Notes: generated by a model not told the origin, from the letters alone. 58,729 nt of DNA from Acidobacteriota bacterium (GCA_037445535.1 JBBIKI010000004.1:1-58729); one strand, 5' to 3'; shown: positions 19,154 to 37,445, counted from the first letter of the stretch. Program-made: numbers and translations.

Positions 19154-20209
19154 CTAACGAGCGCAGCCGAGCAGTCCCTTAAGCCGCGGTCCGATGTGTG
19201 CCAGGGGCGCCTGTTCCTTGGCGGCTCCGAGCTGCATGGCTGCTTTGGGCATGCCGTAGACGATGCATGAAGCCTCGCTTTGGACCAGGGTGTACGCGCC
19301 AGCTTGTGCGAGTTCGAGCATGCCTTCCCCGCCGTCGCGTCCCATGCCGGTGAGCAGCACTGCCAATACTTCCCTCCCATAAGGACTTGCGGATTGAAAG
19401 AGGACATCCACGCTTGGCCGGTGGGGGAGGGATTCCGGGTACCGGGTGAGCAAGGCTTGCCAGCGAGCACTTTGTTTGCGGACTCTTAGGTGAGAACCCG
19501 TGGGCGCGATGTACACGGTGCTCTCGTCGAGAAATTCGCCATGAACCGCTTCTCGCACGGGCATGGAGAGATGAGTGTTGAGGCGTTCAGCAAAGGGCTT
19601 GGTGAAACCGGCGGGCATGTGCTGGACCACGACAATGGGAATGCCTAGGCCGTGGCCCAGATCTTCGAGGATTTTCTGGATCGCGGGAGGGCCACCAGTG
19701 GAGGCGCCCATGAGCAGAAGCGTGAAGGCTTGGTCCGGGTCCGCGGGAGAAGTGACGGGCGCCGGAGGAATCCGCTCCAGGCTTTGAGTAGGAGGTGCGG
19801 GAGTAGATCGAGGACATCCCGAGACCTGGATAATTTTGTCCACCAGGACGGTTCGCAGGGCATCGAAATCCACCAAGGAGTACTGCTGCTTATCAATGAC
19901 ATCCACGGCACCCCGGTGGAGAGCCTCGATGGTAAGGGGCGCGTCCTTGCCTGAATGCGTGGAGAGGATGATGACTGGCACGGGTTTCCAGCACCGGATC
20001 AGATCAAGCGCGGCCAATCCGCCCATGCCGGGCATGGACAGATCGAGCGTGATGACGTCGGGCTTCCATGCGCTGATATGAGCCAGGAGTTCTTCCGCGG
20101 AAGAAGCGGTTCCCACAACGACGATGCGGCGCTCTTCTTCGAGGACACGGTTGAGGGCCTTTCGAATGAAGGCCGAGTCGTCCACGATCGCTAGGCGGAT
20201 TTTTCTCAA
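19154..20209 (-). CDS. cheB: Chemotaxis response regulator protein-glutamate methylesterase CheB
   Basis: Receiver domain (IVDDS, TLDLSMP) plus methylesterase (GASTGG, VQHMP, PSVD, LTGMGRDG). TTG start overlaps the cheR stop. Confidence 0.95.
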   Translation of the reverse strand: MRKIRLAIVDDSAFIRKALNRVLEEERRIVVVGTASSAEELLAHISAWKPDVITLDLSMPGMGGLAALDLIRCWKPVPVIILSTHSGKDAPLTIEALHRGAVDVIDKQQYSLVDFDALRTVLVDKIIQVSGCPRSTPAPPTQSLERIPPAPVTSPADPDQAFTLLLMGASTGGPPAIQKILEDLGHGLGIPIVVVQHMPAGFTKPFAERLNTHLSMPVREAVHGEFLDESTVYIAPTGSHLRVRKQSARWQALLTRYPESLPHRPSVDVLFQSASPYGREVLAVLLTGMGRDGGEGMLELAQAGAYTLVQSEASCIVYGMPKAAMQLGAAKEQAPLAHIGPRLKGLLGCAR

Positions 20210-21066
20210 AGGGCCGTCCTCTTGTAGACGATCGTATCTCCCAACCTTACGGGTTCGAAGTACTTCGATACGCCGATGATGGATTCCGAGTGGCCTAGAA
20301 ATAGCAAGCCGCCAGGCCGCAGGCACTGGGCGAAATGCGAGATGGCTTGATGCAAGGCAGGTTCGGCGAAATAAATAAGGACGTTTCTGCAAAAGACCGC
20401 ATCGAAGGGTTGTCCGTGAAAGTAGGTTCCTAACTGCAGGATATTGCCCACCGAGAACTCAATTCCGGTCCTGAACATGGGCTTGAGGGCATAGTGTTGT
20501 GGTGCCGGGGCCGTAAAGTACTTCGCCGTCTGGCTTTCATCCAGGCAGCGCATGGAGGATGGCCCGTACTCAGCCTGCCGGGCCTGTTCGACACGGTCCG
20601 CGTCGAGGTCAAAGGCGATGATTTCCAGGCGGTGGCCCCACATCCTGAACTGGTTTTCCTTGGCGAAGATATTAAGCGTATAAGGTTCTTCTCCCGAAGA
20701 ACACCCGGCCACGAGGACTCTCAGCACCTCGGGCTCAGCGGCGCGGGCTTTCAACTCGTCCAAGGCATGGGAGAACAAAGCGTCGAACTGGTGCGTCTCC
20801 CTGAAGAAATAGGTCTCGTTGTTGGTGACGAGGCGGGCCAGGTTCCTAATCTCCGAAGTTCCGTTGGTACTGTATTGGAGCAGAATGTAGTAGTCCGTGA
20901 AGCGGGTGAGCTTCAGTTCGCGGAGGCGAGGCACAAGCCTCGACTCCAGAATCTCCTTCTTGTGGTCGGGGAAGCTGAGCCCAAAGTGAGCCGAGAGGTA
21001 CTCATTGAGGAGTTCATACTCCTCCGCGCTCATCACCGGACGATCGTTGGCTCCGCTCGGGATCAT
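20206..21066 (-). CDS. cheR: Chemotaxis methyltransferase CheR
   Basis: Motifs TNNETYFFRE, AGCSSGEEPYT, FCRNVLIYF and FLGHSES. Confidence 0.95.
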   Translation of the reverse strand: MIPSGANDRPVMSAEEYELLNEYLSAHFGLSFPDHKKEILESRLVPRLRELKLTRFTDYYILLQYSTNGTSEIRNLARLVTNNETYFFRETHQFDALFSHALDELKARAAEPEVLRVLVAGCSSGEEPYTLNIFAKENQFRMWGHRLEIIAFDLDADRVEQARQAEYGPSSMRCLDESQTAKYFTAPAPQHYALKPMFRTGIEFSVGNILQLGTYFHGQPFDAVFCRNVLIYFAEPALHQAISHFAQCLRPGGLLFLGHSESIIGVSKYFEPVRLGDTIVYKRTAL

Positions 21067-22967
21067 GGGGACTCCAGAACGGCTCTTACCCGCTGGGCTA
21101 CCACGGGCATGGGGTCGCCGGCCAGGGCGGCCACGGCGCCCAGATTGTCCGCGCCGGAGAGGCGGCCGAGCGCTTCGACGGCGGCCAACCGGATGGCCCA
21201 GTCCGCGTGGGTCAAGCAGGCCCTGAACAGGTCCGATTCTACCTCCGTGGCGCAGAGCGATAGGGCCCGGTAGGCGCCTCGTGTCTGGCTCGCGGGGCCG
21301 CGGACAATTTCGGCTTTGAGGAGTGAACGGGCCTCTGGGCCTCCGATCTCTCCAAGGCTCTCAACGATGAGCGCGCGGACCAAGGGCGCCGCCTCCTCCA
21401 AATGAAGGGCCAGAAGGGGTACGCTTGCACTGTCCTTGAGGCGTCCCGCGCATCGGATCAATTCGGCCCGAGGCTCTCTGCCAAGGCTCTGCCGGAGAAG
21501 GGGCAAGAGATCCGTTTGGCCTGAAGCAGCGGCCTCCGTGGCCAGGGGAAGGAAAAGGCCCGGATCCTCCTCTACCCAAGACTCCCACGTTGTACGCGGG
21601 ATAACCCCCTTGCAATCCAAAATTTGGTCTACTACCCGCGCCCTGGGCTCGGGAGGCAGATGGGAAATCTGGCGAAGAGTTTCACCCTGCTTGTTCGCGA
21701 GACGTGCCGATAAGGCGAGTTCGTCCTCCATGTCCAGGTCCCCGCGGAAGCGGAGGGCTTGATGTAGAGGCTTTCTGTACGAAATGAAGAGGGGGTGCAG
21801 CAGCTTGCGGCCCGCGTGGCCGAGTTGGAGATAGAGGGACAGAAGATCGGCGGCAAGTTCCGGCCTCCTGATGCGTTCAAGGGCCTGGACCACCATTTCC
21901 GGATGAAACAGCGCGGCCTCGCTGGACAGCGCGGCCCGAAGATCGTCCGTACCGGGTGAAAGAGGATAACGGGCGGCCAGGCCGAGGCCCCACGCCGCCC
22001 TTAGGTCCGGGCTCCGAAGGAGCTTGGAAATGAGGTCGCTGCGATGCATGAGACAGGCGGGCGGTTCAGGAGCTGCCGTGGGGCTCGCGGCGAGGATATG
22101 CAGCGCAAGGTCATCTTCCGATCCCGGACCTAGGCCGATCAAGCTCGCGGCGGCCATGGCCCGCAGTGCCTCATGGGGCGAACTCAGACGCCGGGCGAGG
22201 GTGGAACGCAGGCTGGGCTGCTCCGTGGGCGCCTTCGGCAGCCCTTCGATCACATGGAGGAGGAGGCCCGCGATGCCGTCCCCCTCGGGAGTGTCCTCAA
22301 TGGCCAGCCAGTGGGCCGAAAGCGCTTTAAAGGCCCGGGCCCCTCCGATGCGGGCGATGGCTTCGGATGCCATGGGTCCGAGAAACGGATCCGGAAGCAG
22401 CTTGTGCAATTGCTTGACGGAAGTGCCGCTTCTGAGGTCGCCCAAGGCGTTCACGGCGGCCATCTGCAGCCAGGGATCGGCCTTCAGGAAGGGAAGAATG
22501 TCGCTAACCGCGCGCGCGTCTCCCAGACGGCCGATGGCTACGAGCGTGTGGTGGAGGAGGTTCGGGTCTGAATGGCGGAGAATGGCTCGCAGGGGTTCCA
22601 GGGCCCGCGGGTCCCTCAAATTGTCAAGCACCGCCACGGCCTGGAGGATCACGTCGGGATCGTCGTCGCCCAGCAAATGTACGGCGAGGCCAAAGGCCTG
22701 AGCGCCGCGGAGCTTGATCATTTCGAGGCCGGCGTTCCGCAGGACGTCGTCGCCTTCCTCACGGAGATATGCCACCAGGAGATCCTCGGGAATGACGGCC
22801 GCTCCAACACTCAGGGCGCGCTGCCTGATGCCGGGGCTAGGGTTGCGAATCATCGTCTCGATGGCCGCCTTCTTTTCCTCCGGGGACATGCCTGGCAGCC
22901 CATGGATGAGCTCCATGCACTCTTCCCACGTGGGCTCTAGCGGAACCTGAGTAGTGCCTTGGCTCAT
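21063..22967 (-). CDS. HEAT/PBS-lyase repeat protein
   Basis: Repeated units such as ALEPLRAILRHSDPNL, AIGRLGDARAV, AAVNALGDL, IVESLGEIG and AAVEALGRL. Probable ATG 22967; stop overlaps the cheR start (ATGA). Confidence 0.85.
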   Translation of the reverse strand: MSQGTTQVPLEPTWEECMELIHGLPGMSPEEKKAAIETMIRNPSPGIRQRALSVGAAVIPEDLLVAYLREEGDDVLRNAGLEMIKLRGAQAFGLAVHLLGDDDPDVILQAVAVLDNLRDPRALEPLRAILRHSDPNLLHHTLVAIGRLGDARAVSDILPFLKADPWLQMAAVNALGDLRSGTSVKQLHKLLPDPFLGPMASEAIARIGGARAFKALSAHWLAIEDTPEGDGIAGLLLHVIEGLPKAPTEQPSLRSTLARRLSSPHEALRAMAAASLIGLGPGSEDDLALHILAASPTAAPEPPACLMHRSDLISKLLRSPDLRAAWGLGLAARYPLSPGTDDLRAALSSEAALFHPEMVVQALERIRRPELAADLLSLYLQLGHAGRKLLHPLFISYRKPLHQALRFRGDLDMEDELALSARLANKQGETLRQISHLPPEPRARVVDQILDCKGVIPRTTWESWVEEDPGLFLPLATEAAASGQTDLLPLLRQSLGREPRAELIRCAGRLKDSASVPLLALHLEEAAPLVRALIVESLGEIGGPEARSLLKAEIVRGPASQTRGAYRALSLCATEVESDLFRACLTHADWAIRLAAVEALGRLSGADNLGAVAALAGDPMPVVAQRVRAVLESP

Positions 22968-22995
22968 AGTCGGTCTCCCGCTGTTGCGACAAAAG

Positions 22996-24924
22996 TTAGA
23001 CCGTGAACTGGTCCGCCAGTTTTTGCAGGCGCTCTGCTTCCTTGGCGAGGTTGACGGTTGCCTTGGACAACTGCTCGGTGGCCGAGAGATTCTGCTGGGA
23101 GACTTGGGCGATGGACTCCACGGCTTTGACAACCATGTCCCCGCCCTTCTTCTGCTCCAACGTGGCGTCCGCTACCTGCTGGGTCATCCGGTTCATGGTT
23201 TCGACGGCCTTCATGATTTCCTTGGCGCCGCCCGCCTGTTCCTTGGCGGCGGCGGCCAGCTCGCGCGTGACGTGTTGCATGTTCGTGGCGGTCTTGAGAA
23301 TTTGGCCGGCCCCCGTATTCTGCTCCTGCGTGGCGGTGAACACCTCGCCGACCAGAGTAGAGCTTTTGCCCACGGAAGAAACGATCTCTTTCAAAACACC
23401 CTCCGTCAGATTCACGGCCTGGCCCACGTCTTTTTGGACCGTCTCCACGAACGCGGAGATTTCCCGGGTCGAATTCATGGAGCGTTCAGCCAGCCGCTTC
23501 ACCTCCTCCGCGACGACGGCGAATCCCTTGCCGGCCTCGCCCGCCCGGGCCGCCTCGATGGCCGCGTTGAGGGCCAAGAGGTTGGTTTGGTCGGCGATTT
23601 CTTCGATGATCTTCACGATCTTCCCGATGTCCTTACTGCTCACACCGATGCCGTTGATGACACGGGAAAGTTCGCCGCCGCCTTCACTGGCGACGCGGGA
23701 GGCCTCGCGGCTCACGTCGTCCACAACTTTCACCTTGCCAGCCACGGAGCGGATGGAGGCCGCCATCTGCTCGATGGTGGCGCTTGTTTCGTCCACGGAG
23801 GAGAGGAGGTTCTCGCCGTTCTTGGCCACTTGTTCGATGGAAGCACCCATCTCCTGGACCGAAGAAGAGGTCTCATCCACGTTGGCAGCCAGAGCCATGG
23901 CCGACTTGGAGACGTTGTCTATTTGCGTGGCCATCTCGACCATCGTTGACGAGGTTTCCTCCGTCGCCGTCGATTGGCTCTCGGCACCTCGGGTGATCTG
24001 AACCGCTGAGGCTGAAATCTCGTCGGCCGAGGAGGCCACTGTTGTGGAGGACTGCTTGATGGCGCTGATCATGTCACGCAAGCTGCGTACGGTGCTGACC
24101 AGGGACTGGCCGAGCTTGCCTATCTCATCGCCGCGGTCCGTATCTAATTTGGGTATGACTAGGCTTCCATGGGAAACCTCGTCCATGGTTCTAAGGAAGG
24201 CAGTGACCGGCCTCGTTATGCCGCGTGAGATAAGCACGCCGGTGACAACGGCGATCAGGAAACCGAGCACCATGACGACGAAGATGGTAATCTTCGCGCT
24301 CGCGGCGGTCGACATGGCGGTCTTCCCTGCCGCCTCGGCGAGGGCACGGTTGGATTCCTCCAGCTTGACCAGCAGGTTGTGGGACTCATACCAGGCGTCG
24401 CGCGTAGTTAGGGAAATCCCAAACGCCTGCTTGTCCAATTCCACAATTCGCGAATCGTCCGGCTTGACACCAAGAGAAATGAGGCGGTCCTTTTGCTCCT
24501 CAAGCTCGCGAACGGCCTGATGAAGCTTTTTCCATTTGTCCCAAGACGTAGTGAACTCCCTCCACTGGGCCATCTCGTCGCTGCTGTGCGGCAGGTTCTC
24601 GTAAGTTCTCCAAGCCTGCTCCGCCTCTTTCCAGTGGTCGTCAATAAAGGTATACTGAGCTTGGCGGATCTTTGAATCAGAGAGCATCCGGTCGCTGACC
24701 TTAAGGTCGGACATGATGAGACCGCGCTCTCCGATCCAGACGGCATTTTGCGCCTGCGTGATGATGAGCAGGGCTTCGATGCTGGGGACCTTGTTCAAAC
24801 AGACGTCATTCAGCTTGGATCCGACGCTGGCGATCCCTCGGTAGCCAACTACACCAATGAGCGCCGCGATGAGGGCAACAAGCAGGAAGCCCCCGATGAG
24901 TTTCGCTGCGATTCCCAGTTTCAT
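22996..24924 (-). CDS. Methyl-accepting chemotaxis protein (2 TM, four-helix sensor, HAMP, long signalling domain)
   Basis: TM1 and TM2, HAMP, and hairpin QTNLLALNAAIEAARAGEAGKGFAVVAEEVKRLAE. GAGGAG SD before ATG 24924. Confidence 0.95.
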   Translation of the reverse strand: MKLGIAAKLIGGFLLVALIAALIGVVGYRGIASVGSKLNDVCLNKVPSIEALLIITQAQNAVWIGERGLIMSDLKVSDRMLSDSKIRQAQYTFIDDHWKEAEQAWRTYENLPHSSDEMAQWREFTTSWDKWKKLHQAVRELEEQKDRLISLGVKPDDSRIVELDKQAFGISLTTRDAWYESHNLLVKLEESNRALAEAAGKTAMSTAASAKITIFVVMVLGFLIAVVTGVLISRGITRPVTAFLRTMDEVSHGSLVIPKLDTDRGDEIGKLGQSLVSTVRSLRDMISAIKQSSTTVASSADEISASAVQITRGAESQSTATEETSSTMVEMATQIDNVSKSAMALAANVDETSSSVQEMGASIEQVAKNGENLLSSVDETSATIEQMAASIRSVAGKVKVVDDVSREASRVASEGGGELSRVINGIGVSSKDIGKIVKIIEEIADQTNLLALNAAIEAARAGEAGKGFAVVAEEVKRLAERSMNSTREISAFVETVQKDVGQAVNLTEGVLKEIVSSVGKSSTLVGEVFTATQEQNTGAGQILKTATNMQHVTRELAAAAKEQAGGAKEIMKAVETMNRMTQQVADATLEQKKGGDMVVKAVESIAQVSQQNLSATEQLSKATVNLAKEAERLQKLADQFTV

Positions 24925-24934
24925 GTGCTCCTCC

Positions 24935-25585
24935 TCAGACTTTCTCTTGGATAGCGGGTTGCAGAGAGTCATGGACCAGCAGAACGCGGTCTACCAGAAG
25001 CATGATGATGAGACTGCCTTGCATGCTGTACACGCCTTTGATGTAGTCGGACTGGGCTGTCATGACGTCGGGCGGCGGCGGTTGGACGGCCTCGGTATCG
25101 ATGCGGGTCACCTGTTGCACGGCGTCCACGAGCAGGCCGATGAGATGGCCCCTCGAAGCGGTAACGAGGATACGGCTGTGGGAGGTGATCTCCGCCTCGG
25201 GCAGCCCAAGGCGGACTCTGAGGTCTACCACGGGCAGGACGCGGCCGCGCATGTTCGTGACGCCTCGCACTGGTTTCGGCGCATGGGGCACTCTCGTGAT
25301 GGTGGCCACCCGAAGGATCTCTTGAACATGGCTGACGGGAAGCCCAAAGGATTCGATGCCCAGGGAGAACGTGACCCACGTCTCCATCCGGGCCTCGCGG
25401 ATTCTGGCATCTTCGTCCCTTTCGGTTCCCGCCAGGCTGTCGGCGAAGGCGTAGATCTGGTCAGGGCCTGTCTTCTGGGGCTCAGCTTGGACGCCGGGGA
25501 GAACGTCCTCGGCCAGGCCCGAGGCCGGGAGTTGGACGGCCCCGTGCAAGTCTTCGGGTTTTTTCGGTCGATTGCTCATCGCCAT
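24935..25585 (-). CDS. cheW: Chemotaxis coupling protein CheW
   Basis: Motifs FGLPVSHVQEI, TRVPHAP..VRGVTNMRGRVLPVVDL and GLLVDAV. About 60 aa N-terminal extension. Confidence 0.93.
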   Translation of the reverse strand: MAMSNRPKKPEDLHGAVQLPASGLAEDVLPGVQAEPQKTGPDQIYAFADSLAGTERDEDARIREARMETWVTFSLGIESFGLPVSHVQEILRVATITRVPHAPKPVRGVTNMRGRVLPVVDLRVRLGLPEAEITSHSRILVTASRGHLIGLLVDAVQQVTRIDTEAVQPPPPDVMTAQSDYIKGVYSMQGSLIIMLLVDRVLLVHDSLQPAIQEKV

Positions 25586-25610
25586 GCCTCTCCTTCGCCA
25601 GCGTTGTCCT

Positions 25611-27179
25611 TCAGGCTGGCTGCTCGATGTTCGGGTCGATCTTCATGAGCCCCCGCGGGTCCAGAATGAGGACCACGCGTCCGTCACCAAGGATGGTGGA
25701 GCCGGACACTCCTGGTGGTGTTCCCACCGCCTCATCCAGCTGCTTGACGACGATGTCCCTGATGCCCGTCAATTCGTCGGCCAGGAGGCCGCGCCGCTTT
25801 CCATCGGCCTCGATGATCACGGCGTATCCGCTGGATCTCATCTGCGCAGTGGTTCCGAAGGTATGTCCAAGATCCAGCAGAGGGAGGACCTCCTCTCGCC
25901 AGGACAACACGCCGGATTGGTTCAAGAGGTGGCCATCACCTGGATGAAAGTGCAGGCTCTCCACAATGGACGAGAGAGGGAGCGCGTACTCTTCCCCGTC
26001 TGCGTGTAGCATGAGCGCCCGGGAGATGGAGACGCTGAGGGGAAGGCGGACCCGGAAGCGGCTCCCAAGGCCCTGCCCCGTGGTGACTTCCAGCCGCCCT
26101 CCCAGCCGCCTGACCGCTTCCACCGCGGCGGACAATCCCATGCCGCGGCCGGCTCCCAAGTCGGCCCCCTCGTGGGTGCTGAAGCCTGGCAGGAAGAGGA
26201 GCTGGAGGATCTCCTCTCCAGGGGGTACGGCGATACCTCGCTCCCTCGCTGCGGCGGCAAGCTCCCCGTGGTCGACGCCAGCGCCGTCATCCTCCACGTC
26301 GACCCAGACCTCGTTGGCGTGAGCTTCAGCGGAGAGCCGGACCAGTCCCATTCGAGGTTTCCCAGCGGCTTCCCGGATTTCGCGGCTCTCGATGCCATGA
26401 ACCACAGCATTGCGCACCATGTGTCCCAGAGCCTCGCTCGCCACCTCCAGGAGCGCCTTGTCGAGCGGGGTGTCGCCGCCAGCAGCCTCAAACTGGACGT
26501 CCTTCCCCGTGCGTTCGCCCTCGTCGTGGACGATTCTGCGAAGGCGCCCGAAGAGGCTCTGGAGAGGTACCATGCGAAGGCGCATGACGTGGTCCTGGAT
26601 GAGCCCCAGGGTTTTTCCGAGGGCTTCCTGCGCTCCCACCACCTCGTCCCAAGCACGGTTTTGGTCCCGCCCAAGGCGGCCCTTAGACACGGCGTCGCTG
26701 AGCCGGTTCTTGAAAATCACCATCTCAGCCAGCAGGTCAACCGTAGCGTCCAGGGCCGTGAAGGGGACCCGCACGCTGCCTCGCATGGCATCGTGGAGGT
26801 CTCTCTTGCGGGATGGTGCAGTGGTGGTCTGCGCTTCGGCCCCGTTGGGAGGAGCACCTTCTGCCGAAGTGGACCTGAGCGCCGAGCGGAGGGCGTCGAG
26901 CCCCGACAAGACCGTCTCCACTCGCGGGTCCCGCGGATCGATCGCCTCAACGTCACTCTCAATCTGGTGGCACAAGCCCTGAATGGGCCGCAGGCCCATC
27001 ATGCCCGAGTTCCCCTTCAGGGTGTGAAGCTCGCGGCGGACCTCGTCCAGAATCGGACGGACATCTTCGGGAGACGCGCCGGAGAGGGAAAGGAGCGCCG
27101 CTTCCACGCATGCAATGCGCTCTTCAGCTTCGAGGAGAAAATCGAAAAGAAGCCCCTCGAAAGGATTGGCCGTCATCAT
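25611..27179 (-). CDS. cheA: Chemotaxis histidine kinase CheA (no P2 domain)
   Basis: HPt ELHTLKGNSGMMG, dimerisation SVRV, HMVRNAVVHGIE, DDGAG, GFST, GRGMGL and C-terminal CheW-like P5. ATG 27179 overlaps the upstream stop. Confidence 0.95.
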   Translation of the reverse strand: MMTANPFEGLLFDFLLEAEERIACVEAALLSLSGASPEDVRPILDEVRRELHTLKGNSGMMGLRPIQGLCHQIESDVEAIDPRDPRVETVLSGLDALRSALRSTSAEGAPPNGAEAQTTTAPSRKRDLHDAMRGSVRVPFTALDATVDLLAEMVIFKNRLSDAVSKGRLGRDQNRAWDEVVGAQEALGKTLGLIQDHVMRLRMVPLQSLFGRLRRIVHDEGERTGKDVQFEAAGGDTPLDKALLEVASEALGHMVRNAVVHGIESREIREAAGKPRMGLVRLSAEAHANEVWVDVEDDGAGVDHGELAAAARERGIAVPPGEEILQLLFLPGFSTHEGADLGAGRGMGLSAAVEAVRRLGGRLEVTTGQGLGSRFRVRLPLSVSISRALMLHADGEEYALPLSSIVESLHFHPGDGHLLNQSGVLSWREEVLPLLDLGHTFGTTAQMRSSGYAVIIEADGKRRGLLADELTGIRDIVVKQLDEAVGTPPGVSGSTILGDGRVVLILDPRGLMKIDPNIEQPA

Positions 27180-27601
27180 CGTCCTCTGGCTTTGGCCACC
27201 GGCCGGGATGGTTCTTCGGCCCGGGAGAAAATTCGGTCGATGAGCTTGTGAAGGTCCGTGGGCTGGAAGGGCTTCGTGAGGTAGGCGCGAGCTCCTGCTT
27301 GGAGGCCCCGGATGGTATCTTCCTCCTTGCCTTCCGTGCTGATGATGATGACCGGGATGCTCTCGAAAACCTTCTCCCGCTTGCAATGCAGGAGAAACTC
27401 AAGGCCGCTCATGACCGGCATGTTGATGTCCAGAACGATGAGGTCCACGTCCGGGTGGTCAGCGAGGCGATGGAGGGCGTCCTGGCCGTCGAAGGCGTGG
27501 ATGATCGTCCCGCCCTGGGCCTTGTACCGCATGAAAATGAGGTCGTACATCCGGTGGAGCAGCTCCGAATCCTCCACCACCAGGATTTTGTTCAACGTCA
27601 T
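27176..27601 (-). CDS. cheY: Single-domain response regulator (CheY-like)
   Basis: VVEDS, VLDINMP.M.G, ISTEG and YLTKPF. Directly upstream of cheA. Confidence 0.85.
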   Translation of the reverse strand: MTLNKILVVEDSELLHRMYDLIFMRYKAQGGTIIHAFDGQDALHRLADHPDVDLIVLDINMPVMSGLEFLLHCKREKVFESIPVIIISTEGKEEDTIRGLQAGARAYLTKPFQPTDLHKLIDRIFSRAEEPSRPVAKARGR

Positions 27602-28431
27602 CGCAGCTCTCCTCCATGGTCTTCCATGCGGCTGGGCTCGTACACTACGGCCACACCGGCCCGGCCGACGGCGGAACGATCTCCTTTAACCCAGTCGCTC
27701 GCGGGACAGGGATACCCCAGCCAGAACCCCTGGGCATAAGGGATGCCCAGGTCGCAGACGGTGTGCCAGTCTTCCGGGCTTTCGACCCCCTCGACGATGC
27801 ACTGCGCGCCCAAGCTCGCGGCCATGTCGCAGAGTGCTCTGAGCAGGCGCTGCTTCCTGGCCGAGGCATGCAAATCTTGGGCAAGGCTCTGGTCCAGCTT
27901 CAGATAATCGGGAGCCAGCCAGAGAAGGTGGTCCAGCCAGGGGAAGGAACTCCCCACGTCGTCCAGGGCGAACTGGATGCCCAACTTCTTGAGTGCGCTT
28001 AGGCTGGAGGCGATATGAACGAGGCTCGCACCCTCGGTAGATTCGGAGATTTCAAGAACGAGGCGGCTTGGGCCGAGGTGGACTTCAGCGAGCAGCGCCA
28101 GGAGGTCGTCTTGGTTGGCCACCAGGTCCAGAAGCGTGGCGCCATGAATATTGATGAAGAGTTTCGCTGCCGAATTGAGAACTCGTCCCGTACGAAGGGC
28201 GGCCCCCAGGCATGCCATGTCCAGGTCGAGAAGGAGATCCGGGTCCATGTAGGAGCGCTCATGGAAAAGCCTCTGAGGATGGGCGAGGGGCGTATCTGCC
28301 GGACCGCGCAGCAAGGCCTCGAACCCGAAAGGACGGGCCGTGTGGGTTTCCCTCACGGGCTGAAAGGCCATGGAGTAGAACCCCCGGTGGAGAAGCTCTC
28401 TGACTTGGTTTCTCTCCGCTTGCTTCAGCAT
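27598..28431 (-). CDS. Stand-alone EAL-domain c-di-GMP phosphodiesterase
   Basis: FQPV...GFEALLRG, FINI, LEISES, FALDDVGS, YLKLD, EGVE and QGF. Catalytic residues appear intact. Confidence 0.9.
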   Translation of the reverse strand: MLKQAERNQVRELLHRGFYSMAFQPVRETHTARPFGFEALLRGPADTPLAHPQRLFHERSYMDPDLLLDLDMACLGAALRTGRVLNSAAKLFINIHGATLLDLVANQDDLLALLAEVHLGPSRLVLEISESTEGASLVHIASSLSALKKLGIQFALDDVGSSFPWLDHLLWLAPDYLKLDQSLAQDLHASARKQRLLRALCDMAASLGAQCIVEGVESPEDWHTVCDLGIPYAQGFWLGYPCPASDWVKGDRSAVGRAGVAVVYEPSRMEDHGGELR

Positions 28432-28808
28432 GGAGCAATCTCCAGGCCCAGGCTCCTGAGCGCTTCTGTCAAAATGCTAGATTTGACTGGCTTTTCAAAA
28501 TAAAACGCCGCGCCTAGTGAGAAGGCGCGCTGCATGATGGCGGGATCTCCGTAGCCAGTGACCAGAATGACGCGTGTCTGCGGACTGTTTTCTCTCACGT
28601 ACTCGATGATCTCCAACCCCTCTTCGCCGAGGATGCCCGTGAGCCTGAGGTCGGCGATGACCACGTCGTATCCTCCGGCCCTGATCTTGGTCTCCGCCTC
28701 CTCCAGGGTCTGGCTGACCTCCACCTCCAACCGCGGGCTGCCAAGGAGCCGCTTGAGCGCAAGTAGCGTGTATTCTTCGTCATCAACAATCAGCAGTCTT
28801 TTCTGCAT
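28425..28808 (-). CDS. Single-domain response regulator receiver protein
   Basis: IVDDE, IADLRL, LVTGY and FEKP. GAGGAG SD. Confidence 0.9.
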   Translation of the reverse strand: MQKRLLIVDDEEYTLLALKRLLGSPRLEVEVSQTLEEAETKIRAGGYDVVIADLRLTGILGEEGLEIIEYVRENSPQTRVILVTGYGDPAIMQRAFSLGAAFYFEKPVKSSILTEALRSLGLEIAPC

Positions 28809-28880: not shown

Positions 28881-28896
28881 TGCAACGCGCGTGCCA
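28881..28896 (-). promoter_or_regulatory. Sigma54 (RpoN) -24/-12 promoter
   Basis: Minus strand TGGCAC-GCGCG-TTGCA matches the consensus TGGCAC-N5-TTGC(A/T), about 70 bp upstream of the REC gene start. Confidence 0.9.
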
Positions 28897-28957: not shown

Positions 28958-29029
28958 GTCTCAGGGGATTCTCAGGGGAAGGGGCGACTCCCGCCACGGG
29001 CCGGTTCTCAACGTGAGAATGGCGAGAAT
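28958..29029. promoter_or_regulatory. Putative upstream activator sequence for the adjacent sigma54 activator
   Basis: Palindrome TTCTCA-ACG-TGAGAA at 29005-29019, plus half-sites GTCTCA 28958, ATTCTCA 28968 and CGAGAAT 29023, about 60-135 bp upstream of -24. Confidence 0.55.
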
Positions 29030-29039
29030 GCCTGCGGGG

Positions 29040-30368
29040 CTAGGGATTGATGCCTTTGATTCGCCGGTAGAGAGTGGCCCGTGAAATCCCCAGGGCCTCG
29101 GCTGCCTTCTTTGTGTCGCCTCCGGCATGGTGGACCGCTTCAAGAATTTCCGTGGGATTGAGAGTCGCGGAAGGACCTGGATGCCGGCCGGCCAAGCCGT
29201 TGAGGCGTGCCGAATCTTTGAGACCGGGGAAATGCTCGATCCCCAAGGGACCTTTTCGGGACAGGAGGATAGACCTTTCGATGACGTTTTTCAGCTCCCT
29301 CACGTTTCCGGGCCAAGGATAGTGCCGGAGAAGGCCGAGGGCCTCGGGGGTGATGGATGGTTGCGCGGCCCCCAGGCTATCCAGGAAGAAATGGACGAGG
29401 GGGGCGATATCATCTGGGCGGTCACGCAGGGGCGGAATCTGAATGGGGAAGACCTGGACGCGGAAGTAGAGGTCCTTGCGGAACCGTCCCTGGCGAACAT
29501 CCTCAAACAGAGTGCGGTTGGTGGCGAAGAGGGGCCTGAAATCGCTGCGGCGCTCGCGGGTTTCCCCCAGGCGCCGGTAGGATTTCTCCTCGAGGACTTT
29601 CAAAAACTGGGACTGGACCGCAAGATCCATATCACCGATCTCATCTAGAAAAAGCGTCCCCCCGTCGGCCACGTCCAGGAGTCCCTCCCGCCCCTCGTTG
29701 GCGCTGGTGAAGGCGCCCCGGGTGTGGCCGAAGAGCTCGCTGGCGAGAAGGTCGCCTCGGAGGATGGAACAGTTGATCTCCACCAAAGGTTCGGTTCGGC
29801 GTGCGCTGTGTTCGTGGATATAACGCGCGATGACTCCCTTCCCAACTCCCGTTTCCCCCTCCAGGACGATGGGCGCGTCGCTTTCCGCGGCCAGGCCGGC
29901 GAGATGCTTGACTTCCGCCATGGATGGGCTCTCACCGAAGAAGATGCCGGAGCGAGGGGAAAGGCGCTGGTGGGCCCTGCGCGAGCGCCTCAGATGGCCC
30001 AGTTCAAGGCCCTTGCGGAGGAATACCTCCAGGTCCGGCATGCTCACGGGTTTGGCGAGAAAGTGGTCCGCTCCCCTCCGCATGGCCTCCACGGCCTGAG
30101 GGATATCTCCCCGTCCCGTGATGACGATAATCGCCACCTGGGGAAAGGATTCGCGCAGTTCGACGATCCAGTCGAGGCCGTTGCCGTCGGGGAGGTTTAC
30201 GTCCAGCAGAATGGCGTCGAAGCGCGTGGCGGAGAGGGCCTCCCGGGCTTCGGCCAAGTCGGCGGCGCTCCGCACCGAGAATCCGCCCCGTTCCAGGTAT
30301 CGTCCAAAGGAGATCCTGATGGCCTCCTCGTCGTCTACCAGCAACAGGGCGGGCTTCATCTCACGCAT
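29040..30368 (-). CDS. Sigma54-dependent response regulator (NtrC/AtoC family bEBP)
   Basis: Receiver domain; Walker A GETGVGK; SELFGH..GAFTSA; LFLDEIGD; FRKDLYFR; WPGNVRELKN; Fis-type HTH (LGISRATLYRRI). Confidence 0.95.
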   Translation of the reverse strand: MREMKPALLLVDDEEAIRISFGRYLERGGFSVRSAADLAEAREALSATRFDAILLDVNLPDGNGLDWIVELRESFPQVAIIVITGRGDIPQAVEAMRRGADHFLAKPVSMPDLEVFLRKGLELGHLRRSRRAHQRLSPRSGIFFGESPSMAEVKHLAGLAAESDAPIVLEGETGVGKGVIARYIHEHSARRTEPLVEINCSILRGDLLASELFGHTRGAFTSANEGREGLLDVADGGTLFLDEIGDMDLAVQSQFLKVLEEKSYRRLGETRERRSDFRPLFATNRTLFEDVRQGRFRKDLYFRVQVFPIQIPPLRDRPDDIAPLVHFFLDSLGAAQPSITPEALGLLRHYPWPGNVRELKNVIERSILLSRKGPLGIEHFPGLKDSARLNGLAGRHPGPSATLNPTEILEAVHHAGGDTKKAAEALGISRATLYRRIKGINP

Positions 30369-33300
30369 CCTCCCTTGCGGCAGGGAGCCTGAGGGTCACG
30401 GTGCACCCCGGCGGCGGATCGTTGTTCTCGATGGACACCGAGCCGCCGTGCGCCTCTACGATTTGCTGCACCAAGCTCAGGCCCAGACCGGTTCCCCCCT
30501 TTCTCTTCGTGAAGAACGGCTGGAACACTTTGGGGATGTCACTTGGGGCAATGCCCTGGCCAGCATCCCTGACTGTGATGACCACTTGGCCCGCCTCAGC
30601 GCGCGCGGACAAAATGATGCGGCGCTTATCTGGGCTATGCTGGGAAGCGTTCTCAAGGAGATTGAGGATTACCTGCTGCAACTTGGGAGCGTCCGCGTCC
30701 AGAAAGAGGCCTCCGGGCTCAGTAAGCTTCACCAGCACGTCGCAGGTGCCCGGCTTCCTGCTCTGGGCCCAAATCCTGCCGGAAGAGGCGAGCAAATCAT
30801 CAACGGACTCGCGGCGAAAGCTCGCGGTGGGAACGGGCTTGCCCAGCTCGAGCAGGTCACTCATGAGAAGGGCAAGGCGGTCCACCTGGGTGTGGATGAT
30901 ATTCAACATGGGGGCCAGGTCCGGGTTGGAGCGTAGATCCTGGTCAAGGACGTCGGCCGTGGCCTGGATGGCGTTCAGGGGGTTGCGCACCTCGTGGGCG
31001 ACGGCCGCCACCAGCCGCCCGAGGATCTCCATTTCCTGCGCTCTGACGAGCTTCTGCCGCAGGGCCACCTCTTCCGTGACGTCCTTTTCAAGGGCGATGA
31101 AGCCTGTAAGGTTGCCGGCAGAGTCCCGGATGGAGGAGATGGTCGCCTCTTGTTCTATGAGCGCGCCATCCTTCCGGCGGTTGATGAAATGGCCAAGCCA
31201 GACGCCGCCCATCGTGATGGTGTCCCAGAGGTCCTTGTAGAAGGCGCCGTCATGCATGCCGCTCTTCAAGAAACTCGGGTTTTTGCCGATCACCTCGGAC
31301 GCCTCGTAGCCCGTCACCTCCGTGAAGCATGGGTTCACGTACTCGATGGTGCCGTCCATGTTGGCCATGATGAGGGAGACTTGGCTCTGCTCAACGGCCA
31401 TGGACAGCTTCTTCAACCTGGCTTCCAGGGCCCGGCGTGCCTCGATGTCCTCGCACAGGGTCACGGTGCCGATACAACGTCCAGCCTCCGTAACGACGGG
31501 GTCCGTAACCAACCGCACGGGAAACGTGCTCCCGTCCTTCCGAATGTTGAGGCTCTCCCTGACCCAGCTCTTTTGTTCCGCGGGAGGGCGTCCCCAGAGA
31601 GTCTTAGGGGAAAGCGCGCGGGCCTCCCTGCCCAGCAGCTCCTCGGCGCTCTCGTATCCGTGCATTTTCGCCTCGGCCTGGTTGGTGTATAGGATGACGC
31701 CTTCGGGGTTCGTGATGGTGACGCCAAGCTGCATGGTTTCGAAGGCTTTGCCCTGTAGCCGCAGGAGGTTCTCGCGCCGCGTTCGCTCGGTGATGTCGCG
31801 GAAGGCTGATTGAATGGCCGGATGCCCCTGGTAAGTCAGCGGGCCAGAGGCCACCTCCACCGGGAAGGAACTTCCATCCATGCGCAAGAACGTCTCCTCC
31901 ATCAGGGGCACCGGCTTGCCATCCCTGAACATGGCGGACACTCGATCCCTCACCGTTCTCCTGAAGTCAGGATGCACAAACTTCATAAGAGGCTTTCCCA
32001 GAAGATCCGCGGCGCTGTCCGCACCTGTTAGCCTAACGCAGGCTGGATTGACAAAAACGATCCGCCCTCCCGAATGCACCACGATGGCGTAGGGTGACAG
32101 CTCGACCAGCAGGCGGTATCGTTCCTCACTCTCACGCAGGGCCTCTTCGGCGCGCTTCCGCTCCGTAATATCCTCCAGGGTTTCGAGCGCGCCCATGGTC
32201 TGGCCGTTGGAATCCCGGATGGCGACGGCGGTGAAGGAGAGCCAGCGGCCATGGCTCCCAAGAGCGGGGAAGAAATCGGTGGCCAGAAAGGCACCCTTTA
32301 GGAGGTTTGAAGGGCCCGCCTTTCCTTCGTACAGGGTTGAGATATCCGGAATGCTATCGCCCACCAGCAGGTCGGCCAAGCAGGGCCGCTCTTCCGGGTA
32401 GAATGCCGTCCAATGGCGGTCGGTACCGACCACATCTTTCGCCATAATTCCGGTGCAAGCCTCGAGTGCACGGTTCCAATAGACGACTCGGCGGTCTCTT
32501 CCGATAAAGAACTGCGGGATGGAGGAGCCTTCGATCACGGCTTTCAATTGCTTCTGCGCCTCAAGAAGCCGGTTCTCAGCTTCCTTGCGGTCCATGATGT
32601 CGGTGACCAGGCCCTCCACCGCCACGATTGTGCCTTCTGCATCGCGGACCGCCCCCAAGCTAAGTGACACCCATACATAGCCGCCATCCTTTCGGCGGAA
32701 CTTGGCCTCGACGCCACGAACGGGGCCCTTCGCCGTGAGCCGCTGAATAAGGGTTTTCCGAAGATCTTCATCGGCGTAGATCTGTTTCCCCACATCCGTG
32801 ACACGGGCCAACAGATCTTGGACGCTGTTGTCTCCAAGCATCCGGGCCATGGCAGGATTGGCATCGAGGATCAATCCCTCGCTGGTGGCCAGCATGATGC
32901 CCTCGTTGGCGTTTTCGAAGATCCCGCGATACCGCCCTTCCGCGTCCCTGCTGTGCGTGATGTCCTCGCAGGCCAGGAGAATGACCGGCGCGCCTTGGGG
33001 AGGGCGGATCGCGCGGGCCGCTGTCTTCACCCAGAGGAGGCTGCCGTCCTTGCGTACCTTACGGCCTTCCCAGTGCGCCACTTCGCCTTCATGCTCCAGC
33101 CTTCCCTCGAGGTGCTCGCGGAGCCCGTTCCGGTCCTCCATGTGGCAAATGCGGTCGAGCGGCCGGCCCACCAATTCGCTGGCGGTATATCCAAGCTGTT
33201 CCGCTCCGGATCTGTTGACGGAGAGAATGATGCCCCGTGGATCCACCATGAAGTAGACGGCCGGATTGTCCTCGTAGAGGACGCGATGGCGCTCGTCACT

Positions 33301-33834
33301 CAGGCGGATCGCCTGCTCATCGCGAAGGCGCACGAGGGCCGGGGCAAGAAGGCCCGCCAAGGTGACCAGAAGATGCTCATCAGCTGTCTTGAAGGCGTTC
33401 AAATCGGGGCTCTCGGCGTTGATGACTCCGAGGACCCGCCCGCCAGCTTTGAGGGGAACGCACAGTTCGGAGCGGGTTAGGGGATTGCCTTCAAGATAAG
33501 CGGGCTCTTTGCTGATGTCGGAAGCCCTGATGGGCAGGCCGCTGGCGGCCACGGTCCCCACGATGCCCTCGCCCAGCCTCAATGAGAGCTCTTTCCCCCC
33601 TTCCTGGTACCGGTAAGACAGGTGATCACGGAGCGTCCCTGTCTCTTCCTCTAGAAGCACGATTCCGAAATTCGAGAGGTGAAAGGCACTGCTGATGGTT
33701 TCCGTGACGCGCTCGATCAGCCGGTCTTCGCTAGGTTCCTCGATGCAGGCCGCGGCCACGGACCGCAGCGCGGAGAGTTCCTCTTCCAAGAAAGCGGGCC
33801 GTGTTTCGCGCGGAGGTGGTCTCTTATGGCTCAT
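30361..33834 (-). CDS. Cytoplasmic sensor histidine kinase (GAF + six PAS/PAC + HisKA + HATPase)
   Basis: GAF (TRSELCVPL...VLGVINAES), six PAS starts, H-box AHEVRNPL, QVILNLLENA, DAGQGI, FFTKRKGGTGLGL. No TM segment. Overlaps the bEBP start. Confidence 0.93.
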   Translation of the reverse strand: MSHKRPPPRETRPAFLEEELSALRSVAAACIEEPSEDRLIERVTETISSAFHLSNFGIVLLEEETGTLRDHLSYRYQEGGKELSLRLGEGIVGTVAASGLPIRASDISKEPAYLEGNPLTRSELCVPLKAGGRVLGVINAESPDLNAFKTADEHLLVTLAGLLAPALVRLRDEQAIRLSDERHRVLYEDNPAVYFMVDPRGIILSVNRSGAEQLGYTASELVGRPLDRICHMEDRNGLREHLEGRLEHEGEVAHWEGRKVRKDGSLLWVKTAARAIRPPQGAPVILLACEDITHSRDAEGRYRGIFENANEGIMLATSEGLILDANPAMARMLGDNSVQDLLARVTDVGKQIYADEDLRKTLIQRLTAKGPVRGVEAKFRRKDGGYVWVSLSLGAVRDAEGTIVAVEGLVTDIMDRKEAENRLLEAQKQLKAVIEGSSIPQFFIGRDRRVVYWNRALEACTGIMAKDVVGTDRHWTAFYPEERPCLADLLVGDSIPDISTLYEGKAGPSNLLKGAFLATDFFPALGSHGRWLSFTAVAIRDSNGQTMGALETLEDITERKRAEEALRESEERYRLLVELSPYAIVVHSGGRIVFVNPACVRLTGADSAADLLGKPLMKFVHPDFRRTVRDRVSAMFRDGKPVPLMEETFLRMDGSSFPVEVASGPLTYQGHPAIQSAFRDITERTRRENLLRLQGKAFETMQLGVTITNPEGVILYTNQAEAKMHGYESAEELLGREARALSPKTLWGRPPAEQKSWVRESLNIRKDGSTFPVRLVTDPVVTEAGRCIGTVTLCEDIEARRALEARLKKLSMAVEQSQVSLIMANMDGTIEYVNPCFTEVTGYEASEVIGKNPSFLKSGMHDGAFYKDLWDTITMGGVWLGHFINRRKDGALIEQEATISSIRDSAGNLTGFIALEKDVTEEVALRQKLVRAQEMEILGRLVAAVAHEVRNPLNAIQATADVLDQDLRSNPDLAPMLNIIHTQVDRLALLMSDLLELGKPVPTASFRRESVDDLLASSGRIWAQSRKPGTCDVLVKLTEPGGLFLDADAPKLQQVILNLLENASQHSPDKRRIILSARAEAGQVVITVRDAGQGIAPSDIPKVFQPFFTKRKGGTGLGLSLVQQIVEAHGGSVSIENNDPPPGCTVTLRLPAAREDA

Positions 33835-36290: not shown

Positions 36291-37445
36291 CTACCGTTGT
36301 TCGACCGGATGACCCTCGCCTTGGGGAGGAAGAAAGCCGATCAGGCCCTCCTTGGCGAGTTTCTTAAAGATCATCAGCGCCTGGATTTCCTGGATAGGAG
36401 AGATGCGGATGATGGACTGCACGGAGGTCATCCCGTTGATGCGGTTCAGGATGTAGTTCTCCTGGGGTGTGAAGGAGAGTTCGTTCAAATCGCCGAGGGA
36501 CCGGCGGAGGTAGGGCAGGTGTTCGATGGAAAACTCGTCCGTGACGAGGCTCGCCTTAATCTCTTTGTAGGCTTTGGAAATCATGGAGTTGGCCAGAGCG
36601 TGGCGGGGCTGGAGTAGGAGGACCTGCTTGAAGGTCTCGATGGCCTGCTCGAACTCCCCCGCGTTGAACTGCTTCAGCCCGTTGTTGGCCAGACTCCGGC
36701 CTTGTTCCTCCAGGAGAACTTCGGAGGGCCGCGGCGGGGGCGGCACGTCGAGCACCTCCACGATGCCCATCCTGTACATGTCGTAGAGGGTCTTGCTCAC
36801 GGCGAAGTCCGAGGCGTGAAACATGAGGCACAGATCGCTGATGCGTTTAGGGCTTTCGAGGAGTTGAACCATGCGGTTGTAGAGCGGGTCTGAAAGAATG
36901 GACCTCGTGAGGACTTCGGGCAGGATGCGGAGCACCGCTTCGGAGGAGGGGAAGATATTCCTGATGCGCGCCCACTCGTCCGAGCGGCGGGTTCCCTCCA
37001 TCAGAATGGAGGTCACGTCCATCTCGATGGCCACGTGGGTTTCCTGGGCCGGCGCGTCGTTGTAAAACTTGAACGAGCCTTCATCCCAGAGGAAGAGGTC
37101 GTAGATGGTCTCCTCTGCTTTGATGCGGAGGAACCGCTGCACTTCGTCCTCTTGGAGGAGACCGTCCATGACCAGGAGCCGGCCCAACTTGATCCCCGTG
37201 TCTCCCTGTTTCTGGAACGCCCGCATGAGGTCTTCCTCGGCGATCTTGCCGTAGGAGAGGAGAAACTGCCCGAAGTATTCGCGAGGGTCGTTGCTGGCCG
37301 AAGCCACGATCTTGCCCAGGCGGAAGTAAATTTCCTTCACGATATCCCGGCGCTGCAAGAGGAGGATTCCCGTCTTCTGGCTGATGGCCATCCACTGGAG
37401 GAGGTCGGGCAGCGGCATGGTGGCGAAGTCACCGAGCAGGCTCAT
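36291..37445 (-). CDS. DUF4388 domain protein with TPR
   Basis: N-terminal G.F..MPLPDLLQW....KTG.L...KEIYF..G.IV.A (DUF4388 pattern) and TPR-like GLKQFNAGEFEQAIETFKQVLLLQP. Confidence 0.8.
   Translation of the reverse strand: MSLLGDFATMPLPDLLQWMAISQKTGILLLQRRDIVKEIYFRLGKIVASASNDPREYFGQFLLSYGKIAEEDLMRAFQKQGDTGIKLGRLLVMDGLLQEDEVQRFLRIKAEETIYDLFLWDEGSFKFYNDAPAQETHVAIEMDVTSILMEGTRRSDEWARIRNIFPSSEAVLRILPEVLTRSILSDPLYNRMVQLLESPKRISDLCLMFHASDFAVSKTLYDMYRMGIVEVLDVPPPPRPSEVLLEEQGRSLANNGLKQFNAGEFEQAIETFKQVLLLQPRHALANSMISKAYKEIKASLVTDEFSIEHLPYLRRSLGDLNELSFTPQENYILNRINGMTSVQSIIRISPIQEIQALMIFKKLAKEGLIGFLPPQGEGHPVEQR

Follow-up and report, generated by a model that had tools for sequence, protein, structure and literature searches.

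A Che-type chemosensory operon containing a HEAT-repeat protein lies on the minus strand of a 58,729-nucleotide (nt) contig from an Acidobacteriota bacterium (GCA_037445535.1, JBBIKI010000004.1:1-58729). The whole of this stretch is referred to here as the window and is contig C4 of the host genome. The operon runs REC-EAL-cheY-cheA-cheW-mcp-HEAT-cheR-cheB, with every gene on the minus strand, and follows genes for a sensor histidine kinase and a sigma-54 activator. Genes were assigned with Pfam, the junctions, promoter and palindrome were read from the sequence, and protein lengths are given in amino acids (aa). The features are:

30361..33834, minus strand: sensor histidine kinase, 1157 aa, with GAF, about five PAS, HisKA and HATPase_c domains
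29040..30368, minus strand: NtrC-type sigma-54 activator (bacterial enhancer-binding protein, bEBP), 442 aa, with REC, Sigma54_activat, AAA lid and HTH_8 domains
29005..29019, minus strand: TTCTCA-N3-TGAGAA palindrome, candidate bEBP binding site (upstream activating sequence), about 110 nt upstream of the promoter
28881..28896, minus strand: consensus sigma-54 promoter TGGCAC-GCGCG-TTGCA (GG-N10-GC)
28425..28808, minus strand: REC1, single-domain response regulator, 127 aa
27598..28431, minus strand: stand-alone EAL protein, 277 aa (Pfam EAL, 1.2e-42)
27176..27601, minus strand: CheY-type single-domain response regulator (REC), 141 aa
25611..27182, minus strand: CheA, 523 aa, with P1 (Hpt), P3, P4 and P5 and no P2
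24935..25585, minus strand: CheW, 216 aa, with an N-terminal extension of about 65 residues
22996..24924, minus strand: transmembrane methyl-accepting chemotaxis protein (MCP), 642 aa, with 4HB_MCP_1, HAMP and MCPsignal domains
21063..22970, minus strand: HEAT-repeat solenoid protein, 635 aa, HEAT_2 x4
20206..21066, minus strand: CheR methyltransferase, 286 aa
19154..20209, minus strand: CheB methylesterase (REC and CheB_methylest), 351 aa from the TTG at 20209

The genes of the operon are tightly coupled. The REC1 and EAL genes overlap in ATGCTGA, EAL and cheY in ATGA, cheY and cheA in ATGATGA, HEAT and cheR in ATGA (a translationally coupled pair), and cheR and cheB in TTGA, while the remaining junctions are spacers of 10-25 nt that carry GGAG-type ribosome-binding sites. 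CheB is taken to start at the TTG at 20209, which lies in the overlap with the stop codon of cheR, and not at 20392, the listed open reading frame start. CheA consists of Hpt (residues 11-100), H-kinase_dim (136-201), HATPase_c and CheW domains and has no receiver domain; with only about 35 residues between P1 and P3, a P2 domain could not be accommodated. Genes for cheZ, cheC, cheX and cheD are absent from the operon. A preliminary description of this DNA, made from the sequence alone, had reported a tightly coupled cheY-to-cheB string led by REC and EAL genes, with a P2-less CheA and none of these four accessory genes, and on all of these points it was right. The receptor has two hydrophobic segments (residues 1-35 and 207-236). 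Its signalling bundle is built from two symmetric arms of about 179 residues, one running from HAMP up to the hairpin tip and the other back down to the C-terminus, and comprises about 50 heptads in total, which exceeds the 40H class reported for Mcp7, the receptor of the Myxococcus Che7 system.

The HEAT protein belongs to a family of chemosensory loci that is centred on the Acidobacteriota. More than 350 database clusters match it over its full length at about 45% identity and at nearly equal length (about 633 aa), and the named matches are Acidobacteriota or Thermoanaerobaculia. Loci were counted in the family when a HEAT protein about 633 aa long, with full-length identity of 36% or more, was flanked by cheA-cheW-(mcp) and cheR-cheB, and the window falls within this definition. 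A scan with one genome per species returned 67 loci, 65 of them with a full or contig-truncated family HEAT gene. These 65 come mostly from Acidobacteriota/Thermoanaerobaculia, with single loci labelled Nitrospirota, Candidatus Fischerbacteria, Gemmatimonadales, Myxococcota and Geobacter. The preliminary description had proposed a repurposing in a non-myxobacterial host, but as a member of this family the system is no one-off case; the survey of cluster synteny it had suggested shows that the HEAT gene is a conserved member of the cluster, so the refutation it had foreseen for an unconserved HEAT gene does not follow. Specifically, cheA-cheW lies upstream in all 46 loci with enough sequence, and HEAT-cheR-cheB is kept in 47 of 49, the exceptions being one tandem duplication and one split cheR. 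The gene directly before HEAT is mcp in 38 of 46 loci and cheW in the other 8. The position of cheY varies: in 25 loci it lies upstream of cheA in divergent orientation, in 7 it is codirectional like that of the window, and in 8 it is found elsewhere in the locus. Most Thermoanaerobaculia members have the divergent arrangement. When divergent or remote, cheY is followed by genes for two proteins, a GAF protein (about 260 aa) and one of about 530 aa with DUF4388 (PATAN-like) and GAF domains (about 27 loci). This cheY-GAF-DUF4388 trio (L004, L005:1310-3768 and about 25 others; L numbers denote loci) stays intact even 4-10 kb from the che core.

In a tree of the CheA P3-P5 region that included 19 other CheAs, the family forms a clade with support of 100/99. 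Its distribution within the phylum is patchy: it is carried by 10 of the 301 genomes sampled and, in the genus of the host, by 2 of 4. The family HEAT gene is single-copy in the host genome. The family is thus unevenly distributed. In this it resembles an accessory system with lateral mobility. AlphaFold confidently (pLDDT 93.5) models the HEAT protein as an all-alpha, uninterrupted solenoid of about 41 helices, and a search of the PDB with this model returned only generic solenoids (such as alphaRep, karyopherin-beta2 and SF3B1), with no enzyme fold among the matches listed and no pointer to a function. Since nothing in the model or in the fold matches suggests an enzyme, the HEAT protein is, as modelled, a protein-binding platform.

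Outside the family, the closest lineage is a HEAT-linked type of che cluster represented by L101, which occurs in Myxococcota, Anaeromyxobacter and Gemmatimonadales (relatives are named Anaeromyxobacter, Myxococcales and Gemmatimonadales) and encodes HEAT proteins of 630-690 aa. The window is 56% (CheY), 50% (MCP), 43% (CheB), 39% (CheR) and 38% (CheA) identical to L101, and its HEAT protein matches the L101-type HEAT profile with E 6e-24 over 566 columns. Both lineages have the cheA-cheW-HEAT-cheR-cheB core in common, whereas in L101 mcp follows cheB and there is no REC-EAL head. To our knowledge, L101-type systems have never been studied experimentally. One metagenomic protein, P0325 (818 aa), joins an MCP signalling domain (residues 75-209) to L101-type HEAT repeats and represents either a real receptor-solenoid fusion or an artefact of gene calling or assembly.

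At the head of the operon, the consensus sigma-54 promoter lies in the gap that follows the bEBP gene, with the start codon of REC1 73 nt downstream, and the same element precedes REC1 in L003 (an 88%-identical relative), in the acidobacterial L059 and in the Nitrospirota locus L040. Palindromes similar to the candidate bEBP site, of the form GAGAC/GTCTC, are found in L059 and on host contig C56. The kinase gene is co-located with the bEBP gene in L003, L059, L040, L049 and L045, and the GAF/PAS kinase is the probable partner of the adjacent bEBP. Because of the promoter behind the bEBP gene, its palindrome and the recurrence of the promoter in three relatives, the 9.7 kb from this promoter through cheB, as judged from the sequence, most probably form one sigma-54 operon, with the adjacent kinase and bEBP as its switch. 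The host genome furthermore contains a paralogous set on C56 (C56:5688-9954) with a kinase, a bEBP, a GG-N10-GC promoter with dyad, a REC and an EAL gene (bEBP 49%, REC 50% and EAL 46% identical to the window), and not one che gene. This che-less paralogue identifies kinase-bEBP-REC-EAL as an autonomous module, and the operon head is such a sigma-54-driven REC-EAL unit to which the che genes are joined. The C56 module is convergent with a DUF4388 gene (C56:4332-5669).

The cargo of this module bears on cyclic di-GMP (c-di-GMP). When aligned with BlrP1 and MorA, the EAL protein keeps the EAL Glu, the Asn, ExxE, DD, the Lys, the EGVE Glu and the Gln, which suggests that it is probably an active c-di-GMP phosphodiesterase; it has no sensor domain of its own. 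RocR (PDB 3sy8) is among its hits. Proteins of the RocR/VieA type are response regulators that hold REC and EAL in one polypeptide. The window resembles them in pairing a receiver with an EAL phosphodiesterase under a two-component kinase, but differs in that REC and EAL are encoded by two overlapping genes behind a sigma-54 promoter, under a neighbouring kinase and bEBP. Orthologues of REC1 (52-91% identity) lie upstream of cheY in L003, L059, L040 and L049. The complete REC1-EAL-cheY head recurs in L003 and L059, and L040 and L049 keep the kinase, the bEBP and REC1 and lack EAL. Among the 46 informative family loci, EAL is thus carried by 3 and REC1 by 4, and REC-EAL heads the che genes in 3.

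The genomic setting is non-flagellar. In the 3.2-Mb host genome, which is 98.7% complete and whose closest relative is a bin labelled 'Acidobacteria bacterium', a genome-wide search for FliG_C gave no match, while control genomes do match, and five genes for PilT-family ATPases are present, all on contigs other than the window. The absence of FliG and the presence of these ATPases indicate an organism without a flagellum but with type IV pili, in agreement with the earlier observation that the window holds neither flagellar nor pilus genes. A flagellar motor whose switch protein could serve as the target of CheY, as in flagellar chemotaxis, is accordingly not found, FliG being absent. Two more CheA-like genes and other che genes of the host are located on contigs C52, C19, C13 and C14.

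The available data are compatible with a model in which two modules have been fused into one sigma-54-dependent operon, with the HEAT protein taking the output role for phosphorylated CheY (CheY-P); we give this composite reading about an even chance of being correct. The GAF/PAS kinase would sense a signal and activate the NtrC-type bEBP, so that the sigma-54 promoter fires. REC1 and the stand-alone EAL phosphodiesterase, the original cargo of the first module, would then lower c-di-GMP, and the same switch would simultaneously build a complete Che pathway. In this pathway we infer that the transmembrane 4HB receptor would signal through CheW to the P2-less CheA, that CheA would phosphorylate CheY and CheB, and that CheR and CheB would adapt the receptor. 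By analogy with Che7, the HEAT solenoid is most likely a docking partner of CheY-P, an output scaffold, or both. The outcome would plausibly be a coordinated shift towards type IV pilus surface motility or another non-flagellar behaviour; a developmental or physiological response is possible too. Gene content, coupling, promoter, conservation, the EAL residues and the solenoid fold of this model are established by the analysis, whereas the routes of phosphotransfer, the partner of the HEAT protein and the final output are inferred. The best reading of the c-di-GMP enzyme is therefore one of co-regulation, in which c-di-GMP breakdown is switched together with a non-flagellar Che pathway. The preliminary description had gone further and proposed a system repurposed to c-di-GMP control. 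This was drawn from adjacency, because the REC-EAL pair belongs to a separable module that is rare in the family; the idea stays alive through a family member from Gemmatimonadales, in which a stand-alone EAL gene and a 106-aa single-domain Hpt gene lie directly upstream of cheY-cheA (L053:3648-5107).

Several observations weigh against the composite reading. The EAL protein of this Gemmatimonadales locus is non-orthologous (29% identical to that of the window), so that its EAL-Hpt head apparently represents an independent recruitment, and this second recruitment, together with the ATGA overlap of EAL and cheY in the window, makes a direct link between the Che pathway and EAL possible. In most relatives, moreover, cheY does not lie beside HEAT, and its GAF and DUF4388 partners might be alternative targets of CheY. 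Finally, the similarity of the HEAT protein to Cpc7, the HEAT protein of Che7, appears not to rise above the generic HEAT background, as detailed below.

The first of these points leads to an alternative in which the operon is a degradative counterpart of Wsp. In the Wsp system of Pseudomonas, a Che-type pathway acts through the response regulator WspR, which synthesizes c-di-GMP. In the window, CheA would correspondingly phosphorylate REC1 and/or CheY, which would dock on EAL, switch its hydrolysis of c-di-GMP and so make the c-di-GMP level the output. A Che-like pathway physically linked to a c-di-GMP enzyme in a non-flagellar context is indeed common to both, and the translational coupling of REC1, EAL and cheY, the intact catalytic residues of an EAL protein without a sensor domain, the recurrence of the head in L003 and L059 and the separate recruitment in Gemmatimonadales all fit this account, as does a PilZ gene two genes past cheB7 in Myxococcus faecalis. 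The enzyme of the window, however, is a hydrolase where Wsp has a cyclase, and receiver and enzyme are separate proteins, linked to che genes in only a few members of the family and as part of a separable module. A c-di-GMP enzyme is not a conserved member of the cluster as it would be in a Wsp-like system: EAL is present in only 3 and REC1 in only 4 of the 46 loci, L040 and L049 retain REC1 without EAL, and C56 has REC-EAL with a similar kinase and bEBP and no che gene. Since that che-less module has the same kind of kinase, the cognate kinase of REC-EAL is more probably the GAF/PAS kinase than CheA. Control of EAL by the Che pathway is hence unlikely, although it retains a real share of our belief.

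A second alternative concerns the solenoid rather than the enzyme. Here, the HEAT protein would belong to the receptor and adaptation machinery, either as the platform on which CheR and CheB are kept at the array or as a target of modification, and CheY-P would act elsewhere, for instance on GAF or DUF4388/PATAN-type proteins or on the type IV pilus machinery. This reading arises because HEAT-cheR-cheB is invariant while cheY wanders with the GAF and DUF4388 genes: 47 of 49 loci keep the unit, the HEAT and cheR genes of the window overlap in ATGA, cheY is divergent in 25, codirectional in 7 and remote in 8 loci, and in about 27 it is co-transcribed with its GAF and DUF4388 partners. The P0325 protein, in which an MCP signalling domain is fused to HEAT repeats, points in the same direction. 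Against this, in the sole experimental precedent, Che7, it is CheY7 that is reported to bind the HEAT protein; the lone fusion may be a product of gene calling or assembly; and in all studied systems CheR and CheB work without such a platform. We regard such a role of the solenoid as improbable. The two alternatives can also be combined, in that HEAT-cheR-cheB would be the invariant unit, with the solenoid as an undescribed core component of the array, perhaps one that tethers the adaptation enzymes or is modified by them, and EAL would have been recruited at least twice independently, so that in some lineages the pathway sets c-di-GMP as a degradative reflection of Wsp; this combination seems decidedly improbable.

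The relation of the window to Che7 itself, compared with the composite reading of two fused modules, can be assessed gene by gene. Che7 of Myxococcus xanthus comprises CheY7 of 125 aa, CheA7 of 683 aa without P2, CheW7 of 148 aa, a cytoplasmic Mcp7 of 821 aa without HAMP, CheR7 of 273 aa and CheB7 of 348 aa, with one unlisted locus tag (6961) between mcp7 and cheR7 (Moine et al., PMC3945109). The order CheY7-CheA7-CheW7-Mcp7-Cpc7-CheR7-CheB7-Des7 and a link between CheY7 and the HEAT protein Cpc7 have been reported by Darnell et al. 2014, as cited in PMC9040617. Three samples of 400 Myxococcota genomes each yielded Che7-type clusters (L110-L112), none of them from Myxococcus or Corallococcus, and the comparisons were made through the orthologous locus L143 of Myxococcus faecalis. 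L143 reads REC (125 aa), CheA (681 aa), CheW (148 aa), Mcp (846 aa), HEAT (791 aa), CheR (275 aa), CheB (347 aa) and FA_desaturase (321 aa), and because these sizes match the published ones of M. xanthus, it is taken as a genuine Che7 locus. Its HEAT protein is of the Cpc7 type, a family recovered at about 780-790 aa with named members from Sorangium, Polyangium, Corallococcus, Hyalangium and Myxococcus.

The window and L143 have the order cheY-cheA-cheW-mcp-HEAT-cheR-cheB in common, as well as a CheA with neither P2 nor receiver domain, a large PBS-lyase-type HEAT solenoid between mcp and cheR and a non-flagellar context. They differ in the receptor, which is transmembrane in the window (4HB and HAMP) and cytoplasmic in Mcp7 and L143 (MCPsignal alone, 820-846 aa); in the position after cheB, where the window has no des7 but a convergent malic enzyme gene and L143 has FA_desaturase; in the length of the HEAT protein (635 aa versus about 790 aa for Cpc7); and in the head, since only the window starts with REC-EAL, a sigma-54 promoter and its own kinase and bEBP. 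The Che7 gene order, the missing des7 and the transmembrane receptor had all been recognized in the preliminary description, and its designation of a Che7-like system stands for gene order, the P2-less CheA and the lack of flagella, while in sequence the relation to Che7 is distant. Identity to L143 is 37% for CheY, 34% for CheA, 36% for CheW, 32% for MCP, 28% for CheR and 37% for CheB, and CheR and CheB are as close to a HEAT-less che cluster on host contig C14 (35.5% and 39.5%) as to Che7.

For the HEAT proteins, BLASTP aligned only 112 residues of the window protein with that of L143. Profile comparison with hhalign matched it to the Myxococcus Cpc7 orthologue with E 9e-11 (22% identity, 538 columns) and to the Cpc7-family alignment with E 3.5e-14. 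This similarity is not specific, because a HEAT protein of the Myxococcota genome G244 that is not linked to che genes, used as a control, scores equally well (E 4e-11); G244 carries two CheAs only. The profile match was for this reason rejected as a proof of Cpc7 orthology (control E 4e-11 versus Cpc7 E 9e-11). In the CheA tree, the HEAT-linked CheAs of Myxococcota fall in the same half as the family with weak support (50/90), and an approximately unbiased (AU) test did not reject a joint clade of the two (p 0.35). Taken together, the sequences suggest that the window system has the same architecture as Che7 and is possibly its distant relative, but not its orthologue. A plain Che7 orthologue, laterally acquired and doing the same job in stress or development through a Cpc7 orthologue, is disfavoured and very unlikely: identical gene order, a P2-less CheA and a monophyly that the AU test (p-AU 0.35) leaves standing speak for it, but identity is only 28-37%, CheR and CheB of the HEAT-less C14 cluster are just as close, the HEAT protein differs in length and matches at background level, the receptor is of another type, the desaturase is missing and the Myxococcota/Anaeromyxobacter lineage of L101 is clearly closer.

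HEAT-linked, non-flagellar Che clusters were already a known kind through one Myxococcus study, and Che7 is the only one to have been investigated. What this analysis adds is an outline of the family that separates constant from changing components, the lack of support for Cpc7 orthology and the fusion of the che genes to a separable sigma-54/REC-EAL module. The family is distinct, has the same layout in a much more uniform form, and is spread through Acidobacteriota in organisms without flagella, and it turns up sporadically in bins of Nitrospirota, Gemmatimonadota, Myxococcota and Geobacter. Its invariants are cheA-cheW and HEAT-cheR-cheB, while the position of cheY, the GAF/DUF4388 partners and the REC-EAL head are accessory; with these parts defined, fewer experiments are needed to find the role of the solenoid. 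The REC-EAL/sigma-54 fusion, in turn, presents a concrete and testable case in which the lowering of c-di-GMP is coordinated with chemosensory signalling. A search of the literature on HEAT proteins in Geobacter or other che clusters gave nothing specific beyond an archaeal HEAT_PBS protein that is reported to interact with Che proteins (PMC2666748).

Further observations concern the surroundings of these systems. In L143:14380-17045, cheB7 is followed by the desaturase gene, a gene whose 373-aa product carries PilZ at its C-terminus (29 bits, above the cut-off) and a single-domain receiver gene; through the PilZ gene, the true Che7 locus may itself be linked to c-di-GMP. In L004 (5488-5964) and 24 other family loci, a small PBP-like gene encoding 158-175 aa, resembling a fragment of a periplasmic binding protein, lies between cheW and mcp, a gene that is missing from the window. 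L009 (G581:C1:820543-827468) contains two full HEAT copies 5 kb apart with cheW, cheR and cheB duplicated, a tandem duplication of the cluster in a single acidobacterial genome. A further che cluster of the host, made up of cheW, cheR and cheB on contig C14 (C14:12161-18550), precedes a gene for a GAF protein that is 31% identical to the cheY-linked GAF proteins of Thermoanaerobaculia loci. One more gene of the window, 2.5 kb upstream of the kinase gene, was assigned with Pfam:

36291..37445, minus strand: DUF4388 (PATAN-like) and TPR protein

It is possible that this protein belongs to the che system; its adjacency could be due to chance, because tblastn detects 10 or more DUF4388 paralogues in the host, a strikingly large number for 3.2 Mb.

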